Assembly (NCBI GenBank): GCA_963783385.1
Contig: CAWANJ010000001.1
Coordinates: forward strand, 32,001 to 96,000
Source: an uncultured Gemmatimonadales bacterium
GTDB taxonomy: Bacteria > Gemmatimonadota > Gemmatimonadetes > Palauibacterales > Palauibacteraceae
DNA length: 64,000 bases
Direction: 5' to 3'
Below the pieces are notes generated by a model. It did no database searches. It saw only the letters and a program-made list of their open reading frames with translations, and was not told where the DNA came from. This document shows positions 21,971 to 33,641 of the stretch, piece by piece. The translations under genes and the position numbers were made by a program. Positions within the stretch are counted from its first letter, which is position 1; each line of letters begins with the position of its first letter.

Positions 21971-24071
21971 ATGTCCAGCCGTCCAGTCCCGATCGTCGCG
22001 GCGCTGTGCGCAGTAGCCGCCCTCGCCCTCCCGACGCGGGCCCGTACCCAGGAGGTCGCCGGAGCCCCCAGCTTCCGGCACGTGCTCGGCCTGCGCTCGG
22101 TGGGAGCGGTGGCCATCGCGCCCGACGGGTCGACCGTCGCCTACGAGGTGCGGGGGGCCGACTGGGACGCGAACCGGTACGACACCGAGATCTGGCTCGT
22201 GCGGCCGGGCGCGGCGCCCTTCCAGCTCACCCGGACGGCGAAGGGGAGCTCCACGAGCCCGGCCTGGTCCCCCGACGGCAAGTGGATCGCTTTCCTCTCC
22301 TCCCGGGAGGAGGGGAAGACGCAGGTGTGGCTCATCCGCCCCGACGGGGGCGAGGCGCGGCCGCTGACCGACGTGGCCGAGGGCGTGCGCTCCTTCGCCT
22401 GGAGCCCGGACGGCGCGAGCCTGGCGGTCTCGATCCAGGAGACCGAGAGCGCCGCCATGAAGGCGCGGAAGAAGGACTACGGGGACTGGAGGGTCGAGAG
22501 TGAGACCGCGCCCCCCGTCCACCTGTGGGTGATGGACGTGTCGAAGGCGCTGGCCACCGAGGCCGGCGCGAAGCTGCCGGGTGACTCGGCGGGGACCGAC
22601 TCGGCAGCCTACATCCTCCGCGCGCGGCGCCGCTTTTCGGGCGCTGACCCCGGGCGCCGCCTACACGGTCGTCGGCTTCCGCTGGTCACCCGACGGGTCA
22701 CGGATCGCTTTCTCCCACCAGCCGGACGGCCGCGTGCCCTCGTTCACGCACCGGGACCTGTCGGTGGTCGACGTGGCCACGGACTCGATCCGAACGCTGG
22801 TGGACTGGCCGGGCGCGGACGCGGGGCCCGTGTGGTCCCCGGACGGCCGCTGGATCGCCTTCTCCACCGGCGCCGGGGACACCGCCTACTACACCACGGA
22901 CGAGATCGCGAAGGTCCGCGCCTCCGGCGGGAAGCCGGAGCTCCTCACCGGCTCCTACGACTCGAACGCCGACCCGGTGGCGTGGCTCCCGGACGGGCTC
23001 GTCGTGGCGGGGTGGCGGCAGGGGCAGACGGTGCTGTATCGCATGGATTCCGAATCGACGAAGATGACGGTGATCACCGACGCGCCGCGAGCCTTCCGCT
23101 CGGTGGACTACACGCCCGATGGGAAGTCGGCGGCCTTCGTGGGCGCCACCCCGACCGAGCTGTCGGAGGTCTACCTCACATCGGCCGGCGACTGGAGGCC
23201 GCGCAAGCTCACCGACATGACCGCCCAGGTGGCCGGCTGGCCCGTCGGCACCGAGCGCGACATCGCCTGGAAGAGCAAGGACGGGGCGGTCGTGCACGGC
23301 GTGCTCATCACGCCGCCGGGCTTCGACTCCACCCGCCGGCACCCGCTCGTGGTGCGCATCCACGGCGGTCCCACCGGCATCGACCTCCCCATCCTCTCGA
23401 GCCAGGTCGAATCGTACGTGTACCCGCTCACCCAGTGGCTCGCCCGCGGCGCCGTGGTGCTCATGCCCAACTACCGCGGCTCCCTCGGCTACGGACAGGG
23501 GTTCGAGAAGCTCAACGTCGGCAACCTGGGCGTGGGCGACGCGTGGGACGTGATGTCGGGCGTGCAGGCGCTCATCGACCGCGGGATGGTGGACCCCGAC
23601 AGCATGGTGGCCATGGGCTGGAGCGAGGGCGGCTACATCTCGGCCTTCCTCACCACCACCACCCACCGCTTCAAGGCCATCTCGGTGGGCGCCGGGATCT
23701 CCGACTGGATGACCTACTACGTGAACACGGACATCCACCCGTTCACGATCTCGTACCTGGGCGGCACCCCCTGGGACCTGCCGAAGGTGTACGCGAAGAC
23801 CTCGCCCATCACCTACCTCAAGCAGGCCTCGACCCCGACCCTCATCCAGCACGACGACGGCGACCCGCGGGTGCCCCCGCCCAACGGGTTCGAGCTCTAC
23901 CAGGGGCTCGAGGACGTGGGCGTGCCCGTGAAGTTCATCCTCTACCACGCCGACAGCCACGGCGTCCCGACTCCGAAGCAGCGCCTGGCCGCGACCTGGC
24001 ACAACTGGGCCTGGGTGGCGAAGTGGCTGTACGGGGAGGACGTGAAGCTGCCGTTTCCGGAAGGGGGCTGA
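21971..24071 (+). CDS. Secreted S9 prolyl oligopeptidase/acylaminoacyl peptidase (frameshift near 22620)
   Basis: Signal peptide, WSPDG PD40 repeats, IHGGP, PNYRGS, nucleophile GWSEGG, D-PRVP and SHG. Confidence 0.9.
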
Positions 24072-24119
24072 CCACACGAAGACGGTGCGCTCCGGGGCTC
24101 AGGGGCGGAACGCAGGGCC

Positions 24120-24229
24120 ATGAGCGTGTTCATGGTGGACCGAAACCTCCCCGGCATCACACTCGACCCGCTGGCCGACGCGCACAAGCCAGCCATCGAC
24201 ACGAGCCGCCGCTTCACCGAGGCCGGTCA
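24120..24229 (+). pseudogene. Truncated DUF4242-like gene fragment
   Basis: MSVFMVDRNLPGITLDPLADAHKPAIDTSRRFTEAG resembles the DUF4242 N-terminus; the resemblance ends where the convergent ctaB stop lies. Confidence 0.5.
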
Positions 24230-25165
24230 GGACGACACGAGCCGTCCGACCGCGAGGAGACCCAGCACGAGGGGAAGATACGCGAGCGAGACCAGGAAGA
24301 GCCGGCGTGACCGGCGCGCGGTCACCCCGGCCAGGAGCGGCACGGCGGCCGCCAGGTAGAGGCTCCCGAGCAGGAGGGCACCGGCCAGGTAGAGCCCGCC
24401 CCCCAGGTCCAGAACGACCGGCAGCGCGCTCACCAGCAGGAGGAGAGCCGCCGATCCCGCCGCCTGCCACGCCGTCCACCGGCCCGTCGGGTCGGCCACG
24501 GCCACCGTGCGGTAGCCGCCCCTGCGGTAGTCTTCCCGGCACAGCCAGTCGAGCCCGGCGAAGTGCGGGATCTGCCACAGGAACACGAGCGCGAACAGCG
24601 CCCACGCGCCGGGGTCCAGCGAGCCGGTGGCCGCCGCCCACCCGCCCATCACGGGCAGGGCTCCCGGGGCGCTCCCCACCAGGACCGCCGCGGGGGAGAC
24701 TCGCTTCATCGGCGTGTACACGAATGCGTAGGCGACGAGCGTCAGGGCCGCCAGGGCGGCCGTGAGGATGTTGAGCACGGCTCCCAGCAGGCCGATCCCC
24801 GCCAGGGAGACGATCCCGACGAAGGCCGCGGCCCGCATCGGTGTCACCCGTCCCGAGGGGATCGGGCGGCCCCGCGTGCGCGTCATGCGCGCGTCCTGCT
24901 CGCGCTCCAGCAGCTGGTTCAGGCCGTTGGTGCCCGACGCGGCCAGGTAGGTCCCCAGGACGAGGGCCGCCAGCCGTAGCATCCCGGACCCCGGGGCGGT
25001 CGCCAGCCCCCCGCCGCCCCGGGCCGCTACGTAGCCCGCCGCCGCCGTCAGCGTGGCCAGCAGCGAGATCCCCGGCTTCCCCAGCTCGAGGTAGGCCCTG
25101 GCCGCCCCCGCGGACGGTGCGGACGGCCGCACGTGAGAGCCGGGTCGATTCCCTGGTGCTGGCAT
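24227..25165 (-). CDS. ctaB: Protoheme IX farnesyltransferase (heme o synthase)
   Basis: NQLLEREQDARMTRTRGRPIPSGR, YTPMKR, GALPVMGGW, LWQIPHF, REDYRRGG. Confidence 0.95.
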   Translation of the reverse strand: MPAPGNRPGSHVRPSAPSAGAARAYLELGKPGISLLATLTAAAGYVAARGGGGLATAPGSGMLRLAALVLGTYLAASGTNGLNQLLEREQDARMTRTRGRPIPSGRVTPMRAAAFVGIVSLAGIGLLGAVLNILTAALAALTLVAYAFVYTPMKRVSPAAVLVGSAPGALPVMGGWAAATGSLDPGAWALFALVFLWQIPHFAGLDWLCREDYRRGGYRTVAVADPTGRWTAWQAAGSAALLLLVSALPVVLDLGGGLYLAGALLLGSLYLAAAVPLLAGVTARRSRRLFLVSLAYLPLVLGLLAVGRLVSS

Positions 25166-25174
25166 GATCCCCCC

Positions 25175-25212
25175 TTGACGCCGTATACCTCATAACATCA
25201 TGATTTATTCAT
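25175..25212 (+). promoter_or_regulatory. Putative promoter and AT-rich operator in the ctaB / heme-copper operon divergence
   Basis: TTGACG at 25175 followed about 18 nt later by CATGAT; imperfect palindrome ATAACATCATGATTTAT overlaps the -10 region. Confidence 0.4.
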
Positions 25213-25272
25213 CTGCTCGCCGCAAGCCGGCGAGAACGACCCACTTCCGAGCCACCACCGCGGGAGGTCCGC

Positions 25273-25429
25273 GTGGACGATCCGCACGTGCAGTCCGAAG
25301 AGGTGCCATGGCAGCAGCGGGTGATGAACAGCATCTCGGATGCTGGCCCTGGCCGCCGTCGTGTTCTTCTTCCTCTCCTATGTGGTGTGGGGGCTCATCG
25401 ACCTCCTGAGCGTCCGCGCGGGAGGCTGA
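25273..25429 (+). CDS. Small single-TM protein, probable accessory subunit of the heme-copper enzyme (one extra base near 25336)
   Basis: GGAGG RBS. Removing one base gives MDDPHVQSEEVPWQQRVMNSIWMLALAAVVFFFLSYVVWGLIDLLSVRAGG, ending 1 nt before subunit II. Not in the ORF track. Confidence 0.65.
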
Positions 25430-25430
25430 G

Positions 25431-25967
25431 ATGAGCTCTCCGCTGAAGTCCCCCGAGGGCGTGTGGTGGAACTGGACCGTGAGCCGCCAGGAACGGACCT
25501 GGCTCGGCATGGCCCTCCTCTGGTGCATCATCCTGTTCGGCTGGATGATCGGCTGGCGGGAGCTCGGCGCCCAGAACCCGGTCGGTCCGACCACGCGGAT
25601 CAGTCCCGATCGGTACCGGGCCGAGGTCCAGGCCTACGAGAAGGAGGCCCGGCACACCGACGAGGGCCTGGTGCCCGCCGGCGCGGACGTGTACGTCGAG
25701 GCGCAGCAGTGGACCTGGAACGGCCTCCCCGTCGTGCTCCAGGCCGGCAAACCGTACCGCCTGCACCTCAGCAGCTACGACGTCCAGCACGGCTTCGGGC
25801 TCCACCGCGAGGCCCGGATGATCGAGCAGTTCAACCTGCAGGTCCTGCCCGGATACGAGTGGGTCGTTCCCATCGAGTTCGAGCACCCCGGCACCTACGA
25901 TGTCCAGTGCAACGAGTTCTGTGGCGTGGGCCACCGGACCATGCACGGACAGATCATCGTCAAGTGA
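25431..25967 (+). CDS. Heme-copper oxidoreductase subunit II (CuA), B-family/eNOR type
   Basis: Single TM helix, DVQHGF and CuA motif CNEFCGVGHRTM. Confidence 0.93.
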   Translation: MSSPLKSPEGVWWNWTVSRQERTWLGMALLWCIILFGWMIGWRELGAQNPVGPTTRISPDRYRAEVQAYEKEARHTDEGLVPAGADVYVEAQQWTWNGLPVVLQAGKPYRLHLSSYDVQHGFGLHREARMIEQFNLQVLPGYEWVVPIEFEHPGTYDVQCNEFCGVGHRTMHGQIIVK

Positions 25968-25982
25968 GGGAGGGCTAGAAAC

Positions 25983-27689
25983 ATGGCGATCGGCCTCCTG
26001 GACGCACCGTACGGCGAGGACGGCTTCCGGACCTGCGAGGTGACGGGCCTTCGCATCCACCGCTCCGCCGAAGTGCCCGTCAAGATGTTCGGTCTCACGG
26101 CCGTCGTGGCCCTCATCGTGGGCGGGATCGCCGCTCTCCTCGTGGCGCTCACTCGCTGGGAGGCGGTGGGCATCCTGCAGCCCACGGCGTTTTACAAGTA
26201 CCTGAGCCTGCACGCCTGGAACCTCCTCATCTTCTGGATGGTGTTCATGGAGGTGGCCATCCTGTACGTGGGGGGACCCATGGTGCTGGGCCGGAAGCTT
26301 CCGGCGCCTCGCCTCGCGAAACTCGGCTGGGCGGTCATGGTCGCCTCGGCCGTGCTCATCGAGTACGCGATCTGGACGACCACCTACCCCAACCAGGAGC
26401 CGCTGCTCACCTCCTACGCGCCGCTCAAGTCCTCGGCGTTGTTCTACCTGGGGGTGGACACGTTCATCCTGGGAACCGTGGTCGCGGCCCTTCCCTTCTT
26501 CGCCTGCATTTGGCAGGAGAAGAGCGAGCACCCCGACCGCACCCTTCCCCTGGTCACCTTCGGCGCGTTCGTGACCGGCATCATCGCCGTCGAGGCCCTC
26601 CTGGGCGGCCTCATCACCTACGTGCCGACCTTCCTGTGGCGGATCGGGCTGGTGGGACACATTGACGCGGCCTGGTACCGGCAAATGTACTGGATCATCG
26701 GCCACGGCACCCAGCAGATCAACCTCGCCGCCATGGTCACGGTGTGGTACTTCATGACCCATCTCACCGCCGGGGCCGAGGTGGTGAGCGAGAAGGTCTC
26801 GCGGGGCGCCTTCATCCTCTACCTGTTCTTCATCAACATGGGCGCCGCCCACCACCTCATGGCGGATCCGGGCGTCTCGGCCAGCTGGAAGATGTGGAAC
26901 ACCTCCTACGCCATGTACGGCGCCGTGCTGGCCAGCCTCATCCACGCCTTCGCCATCCCGGCGGGCCTGGAGGCGGGTCGCCGCAAGCGCGGCCTGGGCG
27001 GGGACAGCTGGTTCGGCTGGCTGAAGACGGCCCCGTGGCACGACCCCGGCTTCTCGGCCACGGCGCTAAGCATCGTCCTGTTCGGCTTCCTGGGCGGCAT
27101 CACGGGCGTCCTCATGGGGCAGATGCAGCTCAACACCATGCGGCACAACACGCTGGCCGTACCCGGCCATTTCCACGGCACCGTGGCGGTGGGGACCACG
27201 CTGGCGTTCATGGGCCTCGTCTACTACGTGATCCGACTCATCTTCCGGAAGGAATGGGTGTTCGAGCGGTTGGCCCGGCTGCAGCCGTATCTGTACGGCT
27301 TCGCCATGAGCATCGCGGCCATGGCCATGATGGAGGCGGGCATCCTGTACGGCGTGCCCCGGAGAGACCCGATCACCACGTCCATTCCCGGCACGCACTT
27401 CAGCTTCTCGGCCGCCAGCCCCATGCTGGCCGTGCTCGGGATCGCAGCATCGGTGGCCGTGCTGGCCGGCGCGATCTTCGTGCTCGTGGCCGTGGGCTCT
27501 CTCCTGTTCGGGAAGGAGGCGCGTATGCGGGTGCCGGTGCCGCTATCCCTGACCGGGAGCGATGCCCCGGTGCACCGGTACTCGATGCGGGGCACGCTGG
27601 CCATGTGCGGATTCTTCCTGGCCGTGTTCGCCCTGTTCTACGGCATGGACTGGATGTGGCTGTCACGGCTGTGGATGTTCGGCGGATGA
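25983..27689 (+). CDS. Heme-copper oxidoreductase subunit I, probable eNOR-type nitric oxide reductase
   Basis: His ligands present (SLHAW, GHGTQQ, AHHL, GHFHG), but the H-x3-Y cross-link Tyr is Gln (YWIIGHGTQQINL, 26703-26717). Confidence 0.85.
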   Translation: MAIGLLDAPYGEDGFRTCEVTGLRIHRSAEVPVKMFGLTAVVALIVGGIAALLVALTRWEAVGILQPTAFYKYLSLHAWNLLIFWMVFMEVAILYVGGPMVLGRKLPAPRLAKLGWAVMVASAVLIEYAIWTTTYPNQEPLLTSYAPLKSSALFYLGVDTFILGTVVAALPFFACIWQEKSEHPDRTLPLVTFGAFVTGIIAVEALLGGLITYVPTFLWRIGLVGHIDAAWYRQMYWIIGHGTQQINLAAMVTVWYFMTHLTAGAEVVSEKVSRGAFILYLFFINMGAAHHLMADPGVSASWKMWNTSYAMYGAVLASLIHAFAIPAGLEAGRRKRGLGGDSWFGWLKTAPWHDPGFSATALSIVLFGFLGGITGVLMGQMQLNTMRHNTLAVPGHFHGTVAVGTTLAFMGLVYYVIRLIFRKEWVFERLARLQPYLYGFAMSIAAMAMMEAGILYGVPRRDPITTSIPGTHFSFSAASPMLAVLGIAASVAVLAGAIFVLVAVGSLLFGKEARMRVPVPLSLTGSDAPVHRYSMRGTLAMCGFFLAVFALFYGMDWMWLSRLWMFGG

Positions 27690-27788
27690 TCGGCGCGGCG
27701 GTGGGATCGCGGGAGGGACCGGCGACCCGGATTCGCCCCTGGAGCCGGAACGAAGCGCGGGCTCGAACGGTAGAGAGGAGGCGACTCG

Positions 27789-27956
27789 ATGTCCGATGAG
27801 GCGGGTGTCGCACGGAGCCCGGACGGCGGGGTCTCGAGCGACCCGAACGTCGAAGACAACGGCCCCTGGTTCGGCGTCTTCCTGTTCGTGGTCGTGACCC
27901 TGTTCGCGGCCGCAGCGGCCGCCGTCATACACTCTCTCGTGGCCACGTTCGGTTGA
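27789..27956 (+). CDS. Small single-TM hypothetical protein (55 aa)
   Basis: AGGAG RBS; MSDEAGVARSPDGGVSSDPNVEDNGPWFGVFLFVVVTLFAAAAAAVIHSLVATFG. Not in the ORF track. Confidence 0.6.
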   Translation: MSDEAGVARSPDGGVSSDPNVEDNGPWFGVFLFVVVTLFAAAAAAVIHSLVATFG

Positions 27957-28018
27957 GGCCCCCGGGCCGGAATCTCCGGTCCCGCGCACCGCCGGGGCGT
28001 GGGAAGGGCGAGCGCAGG

Positions 28019-28432
28019 ATGCTGTCCCAGACCGCCGAATACGCCCTCCGGGCCGCCATCCGGCTCGCCTCCCGACCCGACGCGGACCCCGTCCGCGTCG
28101 AGGACCTGGCCGCGGAGCTCGACCTGCCTCGCAACTACCTCTCCAAGATTCTGCACACGCTGGCCCGGAAGGAGGTGCTGGAGTCCGTCAAGGGACCGGG
28201 CGGCGGATTCCGGCTGGCGGGACCACCCGCGGAGCTCACGCTGTTCGAGGTGGTAAGCCAGTTCGACGACCTCTCGCCCGGCCGAACCTGCGTCCTGGGA
28301 CGGCCGTGCTGCAGCGACACCGACCCCTGCCCGGTCCACGAGCGGTGGTTCCCGGTGTCCGAGAGGATCGCGCAGTTCTTCCGCGAGACCACCCTGGCGG
28401 ACGCCGCAGCCGGGGTGAGCGAAGTCCGGTAG
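28019..28432 (+). CDS. Rrf2-family transcriptional regulator with Cys-rich C-terminus
   Basis: MLSQTAEYALRA, YLSKILHTL, SVKGPGGGFRLA, CVLGRPCCSDTDPCPVH. Confidence 0.93.
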   Translation: MLSQTAEYALRAAIRLASRPDADPVRVEDLAAELDLPRNYLSKILHTLARKEVLESVKGPGGGFRLAGPPAELTLFEVVSQFDDLSPGRTCVLGRPCCSDTDPCPVHERWFPVSERIAQFFRETTLADAAAGVSEVR

Positions 28433-28493: not shown

Positions 28494-29483
28494 TCAGCCC
28501 AGGATCGCCTCCACTCCGGCGCATACGAACGCCCACTGGAGCCGCATCTGGTCGGCCACCGGGACGGGACGGAGCTCGTCGGCGTCGGCGTCGCGGGAGG
28601 CTCCCAGGAAGAGCGGCACCTCGGACACCAGCGTGAGGGGGTCGCCCCCCAGGGCGCGGATCGTCTCCATGGAGCTCGGCCGGAAGCGGGCGGCCGCCTC
28701 CGGGTCGCCGGCGGCCAGAAAGTGCTCGCGCATCGACACGTGGTTGGGCCGGGTGGCGAAGCCGGGCGCCAGCCGGTGGAAGCCCTTCTCCCCGGCCCGC
28801 TCCACGTCGTGCAGCGCGTAGCCGGAGTGCTCCGCCGACGCCCGACAGCGCTCCATGAGCCGGTCCAGCGCCGCCCGGCCGCGCCACCCGGGCTCGACCA
28901 GGTACCAGGCCCCGCCGGCCACCGACATCCCGTGCAGGGAGGCGTGCAGGGCGAAGGAGCCCGCCTCCCGCCACCAGGCCCACGCGGCACGGTTCTCCGG
29001 CCGCGCCCCGTCGTCCTCGTCCCGGAAGGGGAAGCCGAACTCAATGTCGTCTCCGGGGAGCTCCCGGACGACGTGAAGCCGGTAGAGCGCGGGGTCGTAG
29101 GCGTCCGGACCGTCGGCGAGCGCTCCCGGCCCGGTGGCGCCGGAAGACCGCTGCCACGCCGCGTTGGCGGCGTCTCCGTCCGGATTGAGGTGCGGGAGGA
29201 TCCACCACTCCGCCGCCGTGAGGAGCGGGTCCGCCGCCGGTAGCTCGGCCAGGTGCGCCGCGAGCCGCCGCAGGAGCCGGGGGCCCACGGGCTCGTCCGC
29301 GTGGCAGCCGGCCACGAGGCTCACGCGACGCGGTCCCTGGCCCATCCGGAAGGCACACACGGGGCGCCCCTCACGCGACCGACCGATGAGGTCGCCCTCG
29401 TCCGGGCCCACCGGCTCGCAGGCGAGGATCTCCTCGAAGCGGCCCTCGAGGGTGTCGTAGCCGGGCGGTCGCGGGCCGCTCAC
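28494..29483 (-). CDS. M14 zinc carboxypeptidase-like protein
   Basis: IGRSREGR, GCHADEP (HxxE), LNPDG, SLHG. Confidence 0.85.
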   Translation of the reverse strand: MSGPRPPGYDTLEGRFEEILACEPVGPDEGDLIGRSREGRPVCAFRMGQGPRRVSLVAGCHADEPVGPRLLRRLAAHLAELPAADPLLTAAEWWILPHLNPDGDAANAAWQRSSGATGPGALADGPDAYDPALYRLHVVRELPGDDIEFGFPFRDEDDGARPENRAAWAWWREAGSFALHASLHGMSVAGGAWYLVEPGWRGRAALDRLMERCRASAEHSGYALHDVERAGEKGFHRLAPGFATRPNHVSMREHFLAAGDPEAAARFRPSSMETIRALGGDPLTLVSEVPLFLGASRDADADELRPVPVADQMRLQWAFVCAGVEAILG

Positions 29484-32025
29484 CGCGGCCCGCCTCCGGC
29501 CCGCGCCGCGCCGGAGTCTCTCGTGCCGTCACCGCCGGTCGGCCCCGTGTCCTCCCCCTCCGGCAGCAGCTCCAGGCGTGCCACGGTCGCCGCCTGCACG
29601 TTCGCCTCCGACCAGGGGATCGGCACGCCCGTACCCTCCAGCCAGTGCCGCAGGAGGTCGTCGTAGTTCGGGGAAAAGGGGTTCCCCGACTGGCCCCCGG
29701 GGAGGCAGAAGCGCGCCTCCTCCCAGTCCCCCAGCGGAATGACGGCCCGCAGCGACGGGACGGCAGAAGCCGGGGCGAGCGGGTCGTCGGGGAGCGCGGC
29801 GCACTGGGCGACCGTGTGCGCATCGCCTCCGATGCGCAGCGGGCCCCGGTCGAACACCCGCCCCAGCGGACCCACCTGGCCCAGCGGGTGGCGGAGCCAC
29901 ACGGGCCGGATGTGTCCCCACGCCCACGCCGCCGGATCCGGGCCGAACTCCCGCCGGAGCCGGCCGACGGCGTCGCGCGCCGCCCCGGCCACCGCGTCCG
30001 CCCACGGCTCCTCGAGCCACCCCTCGGCCCGCTCCCCGAGGAGGCGGGTGAGGAGCGCGTGGCCCTTCCGGCCGAAGAAGCTGCGCGGCGTGAGCACGTG
30101 GAAGCCGCGGCCCAGGGCCCACGCCGAGGCGGCGGGCGCCCGGCCCCGGATCAACCGGCTCACGAGGCCGCCCAGGACGAGCTCGTACACCGTCGCGGCC
30201 GGCGAGTCGGCCGCGGCCCTCCCATCCCAGCCCCGCAGGAGCTCGAGCCCGAGGGCCAGGTCGGGGTCGCCGCCCTCCGGCGATGCCGAAGCCCCCGGGT
30301 CGCCATCCGACGCGGCCCGGCCCGCCAGCTCGAGGAGGTCCTCGCGCAGGTCGCGCCACGGCAGGCAGGCCACGTCGACCTGGAGCCGCAGGGTCGCCGC
30401 CACGTCCCAGTCGCGTACGCTCGCCGAGCACCTCCTCGATGCGCGCGGCGCGGTAGCCGTCGATCCAGTCGGCCCCGAGCCAGGGGACGCCCGGGCCGTC
30501 CTCGGCCGGCTTGTTGTTGGCCGAGACCAGGTAGCCGGTCTCCGGGTCCTCGCGCGCGGGCATGGCCTCGAACGGGACGTGCTCCTCCTCCCAGCCCGCG
30601 GCCGGATCCCACCCCGGCGCCGGTAGCGTGCCCCAACCCCGCCGCCGGACGGGGGCCTCGCCGACCAGGCGCCAGCCGATCGTCCCCGCGGTGTCCGCGG
30701 CCACCACGCTGAGCGACACGGTGGGCCAGTGACGGAAGAGCTCGCCGAGCTCCCCGACCGTTCGCGCCCGCTGGGCCAGCAGGAAGCCCTCGAGCGGCCG
30801 CGGCTCCAGCCACGTGGCACGCAGCGCGAGGGCCAGGCGGCCGCCCTCCGAGCCGAGCGACCCGGCCTCCGGTCCCGCACGAGCCCCCGGCTCTCCCGGC
30901 GCCGGGGACCCGCCACGCCCCAATCCCGCCGGCTCCGTCCCGCGCAGGGCCGCGCCGACCACGGGGCCGCGGGGCGTCTCGATCACCTCCTCCTCGACCG
31001 GATCGCCGCCCTTCACCCGGATGGTCTCCGTCCACCGTCGGCACGGCTCCCAACCGTCCCCGCGGCGCACCCGGTCGCCGTCGATCGCCTCGAGGAAGAA
31101 GTCCGTGTTGTCCACGAGCCCTGCCGTCACGCCCCAGGCCACGTGCCCGTTGTGGGCGGACAGGAAGGCCGGCATCCCCAGGAAGGCGGCGCCCGCCACC
31201 TCCCACTCGGGCGTGCGCACGTGCGCCAGGTGCCAGTGGGGCGGGAGTTGCGGCGCCAGAATGCGGATCGTTGGCCAGCAGCGTGCGGCCCGTGGCGGTC
31301 CGTGACGCCGACAGCGCCCAGGCGTTGGACGCCCCGCCCGTTCCGACCCGTTCCGCGAGCGCCTCCAGGTCCTCCTCCACGCGGTCCAGCACGGCGCGGA
31401 GCGGCGCCCGCCCCGTCTCCTGGAGAGGCAGCCAATCGGGATAGGGCCCCGAGAGGTCGCTCACGGCTTCCGGCCCGTCGTCCAGCAGCATGCGCAGGCG
31501 GACGAGCTCCGTGTCCCAGTTGGCGGGCAGGACGAAGCTCACCAGCCGGTGCATGGCGACGGCGTCGGCCGCCTCCCACGGGGTCGGGTCGATCCGGAGG
31601 AGAGCGTGCCCGTGGGGCCGGCGAGGAAGCCCCCGCTCGAACGCCGCCCCCACCCCCCGGCAGTAGGCCCGCAGGGCCGTTCGGACCTCCGGGCGCGAGG
31701 CTTCGAGCTGGGCCTCCGTCCCGCGCCGGAAGCCGATGCGGCGCGCCAGCCTGTCGATGGCCAGGCCCTCCTCGCCGATCGCCTCGGCGACGGTGCCCCG
31801 CACGGTGCGCAGCAGCAGCTCGAGCTGGAAGGGGCGGTCCTGGGCCTGTACGAAGCCGAGCGAGAAGGCGGCGTCCTCGTCGCACCCGGCCGTGATGTGG
31901 GGGATTCCGTAGCCGTCGCGCCGCACGGTCAGCGGCCCGTGCAGCCCCCGGACCCGCAGGGTCCCCGAGGTGCGCGGCAGGCGCCGGCCGAGCAGGAGAC
32001 GGAAGAGGGCGCGCGTCGGGTTCAC
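29480..32025 (-). CDS. Penicillin acylase / S45 Ntn-hydrolase (frameshifts near 31260 and 30420)
   Basis: RDGYGIPHI, GFVQAQDR, GASNAW (Ser nucleophile), LLANDPH, SANNKP, PGGQSGNPFSPNYDD over three frames. Confidence 0.9.
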
Positions 32026-33641
32026 GATCGTCCCCCGGGTCCGGCGGCCAGGTGGTGGCGGATGAGCGGGCGCGTGCCGGGAGCCAGGTAGTCCTCGGCC
32101 CGGGCCTCGGCGGCCTGGTCCAGGGCCGTGACCCGCGCGTGCTGGCGCAGGTGCTCCGCCCACGACTGGACCAGGAAGAGCTCCACGTAGCGGTCCGGAT
32201 CGGAGGAGTCGGCGAACAGGTCCCAGTAGTAGGCTCCGCTCCGGCGCCGGCGCCTGCCCACGTCGGCCATCGCCGCCTCGAAGGCCTGGTGGCGGCCCGC
32301 CGCGACGTGGTAGTCGACGGTCACCAGGACGGGGCCGCGGTCGTGCTCCACCTCCTCGGAGAGGATCGGGGCCGGCCAGTGCCGGGTCGGCGACAGGTCG
32401 AGGCCCTCGGTCTCCCGGATGCGGAAGCGCCCCCCGACCACCACGCCCAGGACCACCACGGCCCCGGCGGCGGCCAGCGCCCCGGGTAGACCGACGCGGC
32501 CCGCGACCACGCCCCACAGGATGCTGCCCACCGTCGTGCCCCCGAAGAACACGAGCACGTAGAGCGACATGCCCCGGGCCCGGACCCAGGAGGGGAGGAC
32601 GGTCTGGGCGGCGGTATTGAAGCCCGACAGGAGGTTGAGCCACGCTCCGCCCGCCGCGAACACGATCGCCAGGAAAGGCCCCAGGTCGCGCACCTGGCCC
32701 ACGGCCGCCAGGCAGACGCCGAACACGACGATGGACACCGTCACCACGCGGTCCAGGGTGAGCCGCCGGCGGAGCGGGCCCAGCACCACGGCGCCCGACA
32801 CGGCCCCGATCCCGAACGCCGTGACCACGAGGCCGAAGCCCCCGGCCGAGAGTCCCAGCCTCTGGCGCGCCACGAGCGGCAGGAGGGCCCACAGCGCGCT
32901 TCCCGCGAACACGAACAGGCCGACCCTCACGAGGACCGAGACCATCTGCGGCGTGTGCCGGACGTAGCGCACGCCCGTTCGGACGGCTCCCGGGAACGGC
33001 TCCCGCGGGAGCTCGCGGCTCTCCGCCGGCCGCTTCCAGCGACCGAGCACCCCGACCAGCCCGAGGTAGGAGGCGGCGTTGGCCAGGAAGGCCACTCCGG
33101 CGCCGGCCGTGGCCACCAGCACCCCTCCGAGGGCCGGGCCGACGGCGCGGGCGATGTTGACACCGACGCTGGACGACACGATGGCCGACGGGAGCTCGTC
33201 GCGGGGAACCAGCTCGGGGAGAATGGCGGTCCAGGCGGGCTGGTTGACCGCCGCCCCGAAGCCCAGCAGCAGCGTGAACAGGAGGAGGCTCCACGGGGTG
33301 ATCCAGCCCAGCACGGTGAGCACGCCCAGGGTTCCGGCCGCGAGCAGCTGCCATACCTGCGCCCACAGGAGGACGCGCCGCCGGTCGACCAGGTCGGCCA
33401 GCGCCCCCGCGGGGACCACCAGCGTGAACATGGCGAGGCCGGTGGCGGCCTGGACCAGCGCCACCATGATCGGCCGCGGCGCCAGATCGGTCATGAGCCA
33501 CTGGGCCGCCACCTGCTGCACCCACGTGCCGACGTAGGAGACCACGTTGGCAGCCCAGATCGCCCGGAATACGGGGTGACGGAACGGCGTCCACGGCGAG
33601 GTCGGAGCCGTCTTGCCGCTCCCGGTGGCCCGGTCTACCAT
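32022..33641 (-). CDS. MFS transporter (MFS_3/DUF894 type with C-terminal soluble domain)
   Basis: GALADLVDRRR, NIARAVGPALGG, C-terminal GPVLVTVDY...SWAEHLRQHARVT. Confidence 0.9.
   Translation of the reverse strand: MVDRATGSGKTAPTSPWTPFRHPVFRAIWAANVVSYVGTWVQQVAAQWLMTDLAPRPIMVALVQAATGLAMFTLVVPAGALADLVDRRRVLLWAQVWQLLAAGTLGVLTVLGWITPWSLLLFTLLLGFGAAVNQPAWTAILPELVPRDELPSAIVSSSVGVNIARAVGPALGGVLVATAGAGVAFLANAASYLGLVGVLGRWKRPAESRELPREPFPGAVRTGVRYVRHTPQMVSVLVRVGLFVFAGSALWALLPLVARQRLGLSAGGFGLVVTAFGIGAVSGAVVLGPLRRRLTLDRVVTVSIVVFGVCLAAVGQVRDLGPFLAIVFAAGGAWLNLLSGFNTAAQTVLPSWVRARGMSLYVLVFFGGTTVGSILWGVVAGRVGLPGALAAAGAVVVLGVVVGGRFRIRETEGLDLSPTRHWPAPILSEEVEHDRGPVLVTVDYHVAAGRHQAFEAAMADVGRRRRRSGAYYWDLFADSSDPDRYVELFLVQSWAEHLRQHARVTALDQAAEARAEDYLAPGTRPLIRHHLAAGPGGRS

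Follow-up and report, generated by a model that had tools for sequence, protein, structure and literature searches.

A 'cytochrome c oxidase' locus of an uncultured Gemmatimonadales bacterium probably encodes an eNOR-type nitric oxide reductase and has a conserved small gene upstream of subunit II

Does a locus with all the appearance of a cytochrome c oxidase operon reduce oxygen, or does it reduce nitric oxide (NO)? The question is raised by positions 24227-28432 of a 64,000-nucleotide stretch of contig CAWANJ010000001.1, from the genome assembly GCA_963783385.1 of an uncultured Gemmatimonadales bacterium. This whole stretch, whose G+C content is ~72%, is called the window here. The original prediction was that the locus codes for an NO reductase of the eNOR type. 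eNOR is the family of heme-copper NO reductases defined by Hemp, Gennis and Murali, with criteria that include the reduction of NO to nitrous oxide (N2O), the lack of O2 reduction and the presence of heme As. The signature residues of the enzyme, its position in a phylogenetic tree and the gene content of the locus all support that interpretation. We estimate the probability that the locus encodes an eNOR-family heme-copper NO reductase rather than an O2 reductase, with the accessory genes and the physiology proposed below, at roughly 0.87. The gene positions given initially, those of ctaB, subunit II, subunit I and an Rrf2 gene downstream, were borne out by open reading frames (ORFs) and profile matches.

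The catalytic subunit I is encoded on the forward strand, at 25983-27689 (PF00115, 187.7 bits). A search of the PDB returned the ba3 oxidase of Thermus thermophilus as its best solved relative (E value of 7e-43), and the alignment with that protein places H77, H241, H290, H291, H396 and H398 on the ligand histidines of ba3; the six His ligands claimed at first are thus all found. Helix VI reads GHGTQQIN, and its GHGTQQ stretch lies opposite GHPIVY of ba3, so that Gln245 falls on the cross-linked Tyr237, again as predicted. Residues H241, G242, Q244, Q245, N247, Y256, S318 and H321 are kept in all 120 homologues listed, which are 59-96% identical to the query. This pattern is therefore a trait of the family and not an accident of a single sequence.

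The residues given for the eNOR of Rhodothermus marinus are Q-245 (Y-237 in ba3), S-318, H-321, Y-256 and E-(II)21 (Murali et al. 2024, Dataset S1, PMC11214002; statements drawn from this source refer, here and below, to the parts of it that were accessible). The query has this full list, Q245, Y256, S318, H321 and Glu21 of subunit II, with identical numbering. Elsewhere among the relevant families, the position of H321 is occupied by Thr in ba3, bNOR and sNOR, and that of the Tyr by Asn in bNOR (N-245) and sNOR (N-243) and by Glu in nNOR (Dataset S1, PMC11214002). Having Gln245, the query shows neither the Tyr four residues past the first CuB His that marks the B-family O2 reductases, nor the Asn of bNOR and sNOR, nor the Glu that takes the Tyr position in cNOR, qNOR and nNOR and serves there as the fourth FeB ligand. 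Furthermore, its subunit II is a CuA cupredoxin and not a cytochrome c.

The Glu of a PAGLEAG motif, Glu330, had been put forward as a candidate iron ligand. This proposal did not hold, as ba3 has an aligned Glu too (ASLEFAG). E330 is located nine residues past the K-channel position H321, toward the cytoplasmic end of helix VIII. Since the residue is shared with ba3 and sited in that part of the helix, we rejected it as an eNOR-specific metal ligand.

As for annotation, the source names shown for the homologues all read 'cytochrome c oxidase subunit I/1' or 'cbb3-type cytochrome c oxidase subunit I', which agrees with the expectation that pipelines would label the enzyme an oxidase. The only NCBIfam model to match subunit I was CtaD, with 48.6 bits against a cut-off of 670.75. 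The related claim that screens for nor genes would miss such an enzyme is dated, since studies from 2025 and 2026, in their accessible parts, screen for eNOR routinely.

We searched 1.84 billion cluster representatives with subunit I and collected 31 proteins of at least 440 residues. On the basis of helix VI, they fall into a group with HxxQQ, together with S..H in helix VIII (the query, P0121 and P0122), a group with HxxQY (P0124, P0127, P0130 and P0146), a canonical group with GHPxVYFW and S..T, and others. A tree of 45 rows was built by a quick IQ-TREE search, with support values from the Shimodaira-Hasegawa-like approximate likelihood ratio test (SH-aLRT), and rooted on three A-family enzymes including that of the host genome itself; four rows, P0125, P0129, P0214 and P0225, were omitted for being short or for having a broken or atypical helix VI region. 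The query belongs to a clade of 13 rows (support 100) with proteins of Halovivax asiaticus, Natrinema altunense, Halorubrum, Halopenitus, Rhodothermus sp., Salinibacter and other Gemmatimonadota. P0122 is sister to this clade, and the HxxQQ motif is present in each of the 14 rows that they form together (support 99). A separate, canonical B clade of 17 rows holds two enzymes of H. asiaticus and one of Rhodothermus sp. that bear the Tyr. Placement in a superfamily tree, the check proposed at the outset, thus puts subunit I with eNOR and apart from the Tyr-bearing oxidases.

The four HxxQY proteins are the nearest outgroups of the eNOR clade. Their helix VI reads H-x2-Q-Y and their helix VIII S..H, so that they keep both an eNOR-like Gln244 and the Tyr; judging from these motifs, they may be intermediate between B-type oxidases and eNOR. 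The mixing of bacteria and archaea from saline habitats in the eNOR part of the tree hints at gene transfer. One of the haloarchaeal loci (L047) has its eNOR on a 525 kb plasmid.

Published labels are available for members of the clade. One H. asiaticus protein is labelled ENOR (Dataset S4, PMC11214002), and this organism is counted with A=1, B1=2, QNOR=1 and ENOR=1 (Dataset S6, PMC11214002). Its genome contains five PF00115 matches: one A-type and two B-type enzymes, all three with the Tyr, a fourth match in a 768-residue open frame, which was taken as qNOR by its length alone, and the HGTQQ protein, with 62% identity to the query. Similarly, Halorubrum amylolyticum is counted with ENOR=2 (Dataset S6, PMC11214002), and we found two eNOR loci in it. 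In the genus Rhodothermus, six of seven genomes code for a homologue 67-68% identical to the query. The R. marinus eNOR reduces NO (0.68 NO per s), makes N2O and does not reduce O2 (PMC11214002). The query has the six His ligands, a Gln at the Tyr position, the K-channel set including Glu21 of subunit II and a CuA subunit II, and it shares a clade with a labelled eNOR.

NO dismutation or N2O reduction would be other chemistries for an enzyme of this kind, and they have been proposed for other Tyr-less families of the superfamily. Those families branch with qNOR and cNOR and not with the B family (PMC11214002), whereas the query is 67-68% identical to the Rhodothermus homologues, and the R. marinus enzyme makes N2O. 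We consider such a chemistry extremely unlikely here and retain NO reduction to N2O as the activity of the enzyme.

Two sets of loci served to examine the other genes. The 'close' set consists of 80 eNOR loci, and the 'distant' set of 80 loci of the P0122-type eNOR branch, which are 41-47% identical to the query. Subunit II is encoded at 25431-25967 on the forward strand and is present in 79 of the 80 close loci. It comprises one membrane helix and a CuA cupredoxin domain, with Glu21 at the position of the K-channel entrance. It matches TIGR02866 with 43.7 bits and PF00116 with 21.5 bits, just below the cut-off of 22 for the latter. The CuA site assigned to it earlier is there as a full pattern, H120 ... 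C160-x-E162-x-C164-x3-H168-x2-M171, and both the CuA ligands and E21 are invariant in 17/17 aligned homologues.

Directly upstream of subunit II, on the same strand, lies a gene of 51 codons that the original prediction had missed (25273-25429). Its product has one helix, and we propose it as a third eNOR subunit. GGGAGG precedes its start codon, GTG 25273. The frame is broken by an extra base at 25337, and the last 29 codons lie at 25340-25429. Relatives have the same frame, of ~50 codons, with a conserved N-terminal part. The extra base is missing from the contigs of all four public sequencing runs compared with the stretch. One of these runs possibly comes from the source sample, and the remaining three are metagenomes that other studies obtained from salt marshes. 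This identifies the break as an error of the assembly, and the product of the gene has 51 residues. A broken frame could also be read as a sign that the locus is decaying. Nevertheless, no indels were found in ctaB, subunit II, subunit I or the Rrf2 gene relative to the contigs of the four runs, and an intact, near-identical protein of 51 residues (P0356) exists in the protein collection. Two further single-base differences, one inside a peptidase gene (22611) and one at 24094, appear only in the comparison with the likely source run, and this pattern likewise points to assembly error. Decay of the locus is thus extremely improbable. The peptidase gene, of the S9 type (21971-24071), is itself split over two frames, and the contigs of that likely source run lack one base at each of these two positions.

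A profile of the small gene found it on the same strand in 77 of the 80 close loci, with its end 4-19 nt before subunit II; the three loci without a match have no upstream DNA. It was also found in 63 of the 80 distant loci, all 63 being among the 64 whose sequence reaches 800 nt or further upstream of subunit I. W22 and Y36 of the protein are invariant in 78/78 sequences, and S35 and W39 are present in 77 of them. A total of 609 proteins match the profile at E <= 0.001. No Pfam family scored above its cut-off with the small protein, the corresponding Atlas clusters are named only 'hypothetical protein', and a comparison of the profile with all PDB chains yielded nothing significant (best match PetN, E 0.44).

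In a model of the complex, with subunits I and II together and the small protein as partner, the latter obtained a score of 0.93, against 0.01 for the best of three controls. Among solved complexes, 116 of 157 attained such a mark, as did 2 of 215 mismatched pairs; this calibration is only rough because our own alignments were used. Agreement between runs extends to at least 91% of contacts, with a predicted local distance difference test (pLDDT) value of at least 79 for the partner. The small protein is modelled in contact with residues 176-204, 228-238, 271-289 and 297-310 of subunit I, which belong to helices V-VIII, and with residues 10-14, 54-61 and 142-143 of subunit II, with no confident contact to the membrane helix of the latter (24-42). 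On the strength of this model and of its conservation, we hold the small protein to be quite probably a genuine third subunit. eNOR would then, with the same good probability, be a three-subunit enzyme whose ~50-residue subunit is conserved across both deep branches, in bacteria and archaea. According to the accessible part of a 2026 preprint, eNOR has two subunits, and eNOR operons that include a gene for heme o synthase are 'very common'. Our search for a third or small eNOR subunit in the accessible literature found none described; the SI Appendix and Datasets S2/S3 of PMC11214002, which may bear on it, were outside its scope. If the small gene is real, the composition of eNOR needs revision.

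The model places Tyr36 against I238, N285, M286, A289 and N306 of subunit I, beside the His ligands, and the Ser35-Tyr36 pair within the membrane, level with the catalytic His ligands. A Tyr provided by a second chain could deliver protons or electrons to the Tyr-less site or form an NO gate between helices V and VI, although such a catalytic or gating role of Tyr36 is doubtful. The same residue bears on the possibility that the enzyme is a true B-family O2 reductase after all, with its Tyr coming from elsewhere, in subunit I or as Tyr36 of the small protein. Besides the modelled location of this invariant residue, two observations are in keeping with a relocated Tyr: the Tyr of the C family sits on another helix (PMC11214002), and the nearest outgroups keep H-x2-Q-Y. 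In contrast, H-x3-Q is invariant among the 120 homologues listed, and the query is split from the Tyr-bearing B enzymes with a support of 99. Moreover, the R. marinus enzyme showed no reduction of O2 when a range of donors was offered, and the authors of that study report no migrated Tyr in the Tyr-less families (PMC11214002). A relocated Tyr is thus very unlikely, and the enzyme is best regarded as an NO reductase with Gln245 in place of the Tyr.

In three distant loci (L114, L126 and L144), a gene of ~500 codons (~570-2290) with weak or no COX1 similarity lies between a divergent Rrf2 gene and the small gene; that of L144 matches PF00115 with 50.2 bits. Downstream, L114 also has a Sco1 gene and a gene for a cytochrome b / 4Fe-4S fusion.

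The eNOR genes are flanked on one side by ctaB, which codes for heme o synthase (24227-25165, reverse strand; TIGR01473, 240.2 bits for a cut-off of 210.3) and is transcribed away from them. It is the second and more divergent ctaB paralogue of the genome; the other one (C9:762457-763284, 329.7 bits) adjoins ctaA. ctaB-like genes are found within 7 kb in 43 of the 80 close loci. The divergent intergenic region contains a promoter-like TTGACG followed by an AT-rich box, ATAACATCATGAT(y)TA (25175-25207, forward strand), a possible operator. The box (25192-25207) is conserved: the window shares it with its two closest loci, L012 and L013, where the Rrf2 gene is present as well. The genome harbours 11 other matches with at most two mismatches, none in a promoter-like context within the flanking sequence inspected; as a second promoter-like box is thus missing, nothing points to a regulon. 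A search for inverted repeats in both intergenic regions gave no pairs and no long repeat. That the box might serve as an operator is only an idea at this stage.

On the other side, an ORF at 27953-28432 on the forward strand codes for a regulator of the Rrf2 family (PF02082, 103 bits; TIGR00738, 117.3 bits for a cut-off of 73.3). Its start is likely the ATG at 28019, because the Pfam match begins at residue 24. The protein has a Cys/His motif, C-x5-CC-x5-C-x2-H, that aligns with C98, C104 and H107 of Escherichia coli IscR, and a tblastn search found its gene to be the sole one of the family in the host genome. From these features, we consider it a candidate NO-responsive regulator of the locus.

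We then turned to the whole host genome, which is of salt-marsh origin, amounts to 3.54 Mb in 9 contigs and is rated 92% complete. It encodes an A-family oxidase (550 bits) with GHPEVY, a NirK (350.8 bits for a cut-off of 296.3), and ctaA in addition to the two ctaB genes. No nirS, nosZ of either clade, narG or napA was found above cut-off in this genome. The gene survey recommended with the original prediction thus detected nirK and ctaA but neither nirS nor nosZ. nirK is also linked with eNOR in other genomes, as it occurs within 7 kb in 26 of the 80 close loci. On one Bacteroidota contig, two full copies of the eNOR locus (L023 and L024) are located ~114 kb apart, each with nirK upstream. 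The host genome also contains a weak third PF00115 match (C9:914441-914797, 22.6 bits) and a second CtaA-like match with one internal TGA (C5:5041-5880, 44.7 bits). In the window, no other nitrogen-cycle gene was detected among 22 additional ORFs; a penicillin amidase gene (~29480-33594) is found there in two overlapping frames.

This gene content bears on the physiological role of the enzyme. eNOR might protect an aerobe from nitrosative stress by detoxifying NO rather than take part in respiration, a view that concerns its role only and not its chemistry. The failure to find narG, napA, nosZ and nirS, the putative Fe-S regulator of the Rrf2 family next to the locus, the normal A-family oxidase of the host and the low turnover of the R. 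marinus enzyme, 0.68 NO per s (PMC11214002), would all be consistent with detoxification. The nirK gene of the genome, with its linkage to eNOR in other loci, rather suggests respiration, and the conserved K-channel residues suggest energy conservation. The two roles are also compatible with each other. We regard a purely protective function as possible, though not as the probable one, and favour a respiratory eNOR that reduces the NO formed by NirK. Nitrite would thereby be converted to N2O in a host whose genome revealed no nar, nap or nos genes, and this conversion is likely its pathway.

The enzyme would catalyse the reaction 2 NO + 2 e- + 2 H+ -> N2O + H2O. Electrons would enter through CuA of subunit II, and the low-spin heme (H77/H398) would relay them to the high-spin heme (H396) and to the metal site with three His ligands (H241, H290 and H291). 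With Gln245 in the position of the cross-linked Tyr that oxidases require, the four-electron reduction of O2 is not expected. Protons are probably taken up from the cytoplasm through an analogue of the K-channel formed by Glu21 of subunit II, H321, S318, Y256 and Q245, and such an uptake would make the NO reduction step electrogenic. Together with ctaA, the ctaB paralogue next to the eNOR genes is probably the source of the prenylated heme precursor. The 51-residue protein is probably packed on helices V-VIII of subunit I as the third subunit, and the Rrf2 regulator probably couples expression of the locus to NO or to Fe-S status.

Several points weigh against parts of this proposal. The tree comes from a quick search, a careful one being incomplete. 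Functional transfer rests on one characterised enzyme, ~67% identical to the query, and R. marinus was not singled out among the Rhodothermus genomes with a homologue. The metal at the active site of the newer NO reductase families, including eNOR, is left open in PMC11214002. As the host genome is 92% complete, its nirS, nosZ, narG and napA are to be called not found rather than absent. The assembly differs from the likely source run by three single bases in 6.6 kb, and the binding of the small protein is a matter of model confidence, not of measurement. Finally, the Rrf2 protein remains under the equivalog cut-offs of both IscR (TIGR02010, 72.4 versus 207.55) and NsrR (NF008240, 43.3 versus 182), and its linkage with eNOR is partial: an Rrf2 gene stands beside eNOR in four of the 80 close loci, and a divergently oriented one in 19 of the 39 distant loci whose upstream DNA extends for 2.9 kb or more.

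Among public sequences, the nearest relative of the locus comes from an uncultured Gemmatimonadota bacterium; its subunit I is 98% identical. DNA of the lineage is present in metagenomes of salt marsh, sediment and soil, and the matching sequencing runs included none of RNA. Recent studies, in their accessible parts, mostly discuss Gemmatimonadota as consumers of N2O. The present genome adds a lineage of the phylum that has a module of nirK and eNOR and in which no N2O reductase was found. Given that gene content and the environments in which its DNA occurs, the lineage is likely a net source of N2O. The label 'cytochrome c oxidase' hides an enzyme that would produce a greenhouse gas. The surprise is limited, since recent surveys, as far as accessible, already screen for eNOR and find it abundant.

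How does the locus compare with known systems? In ba3, a B-type enzyme, the gene just upstream of that of subunit II codes for a very small single-helix protein, subunit IIa. The small protein described here resembles IIa in size, in its single helix and in the position of its gene. We did not equate the two: no sequence in the PDB matched the small protein, and it is modelled on helices V-VIII of subunit I and not beside the helix of subunit II, although a list of contacts is no proof of absence. ba3 as a whole (PDB 1XME and others) is similar to the query in its six His ligands, its one-helix CuA subunit II and the layout of its K-channel. It differs by Tyr237, cross-linked to His233, and by Thr312, where the query has Gln245 and His321, and the two enzymes belong to separate clades.

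Among the NO reductases, bNOR (qCuANOR) of Bacillus azotoformans and sNOR are, like the query, Tyr-less enzymes derived from the B family, with homologues of the CuA-type subunit II and with K-channel residues. They differ from the query in that Asn replaces the Tyr and Thr occupies the site of H321. cNOR and qNOR catalyse the same reaction and belong to the same superfamily. In contrast with the query, they harbour a Glu four residues past the first His of the metal site, FeB with a Glu ligand and a cytochrome c or fused subunit, and they have C-family ancestry and no cytoplasmic proton channel, according to the accessible descriptions of these enzymes. Among regulators, the Rrf2 protein of the locus is similar to NsrR and IscR in its fold and in the Cys and His residues aligned with those of IscR, whereas it scores below the cut-offs of both.

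The eNOR of R. marinus DSM 4252 is the closest counterpart, since it shares the five signature residues, the CuA subunit II, the derivation from the B family and the linked heme-synthesis genes. That strain has nap, nirS and nosZ (in the accessible descriptions), none of which was found in the host genome considered here, and that genome belongs to the phylum Gemmatimonadota. In the present locus, moreover, ctaB rather than ctaA is adjacent, an Rrf2 gene follows, unlike in R. marinus, and the enzyme is known from its genes alone. eNOR is thus an already known and biochemically characterised family to which this locus adds a Gemmatimonadota host, and the conserved small gene is the part of the finding that may be new.

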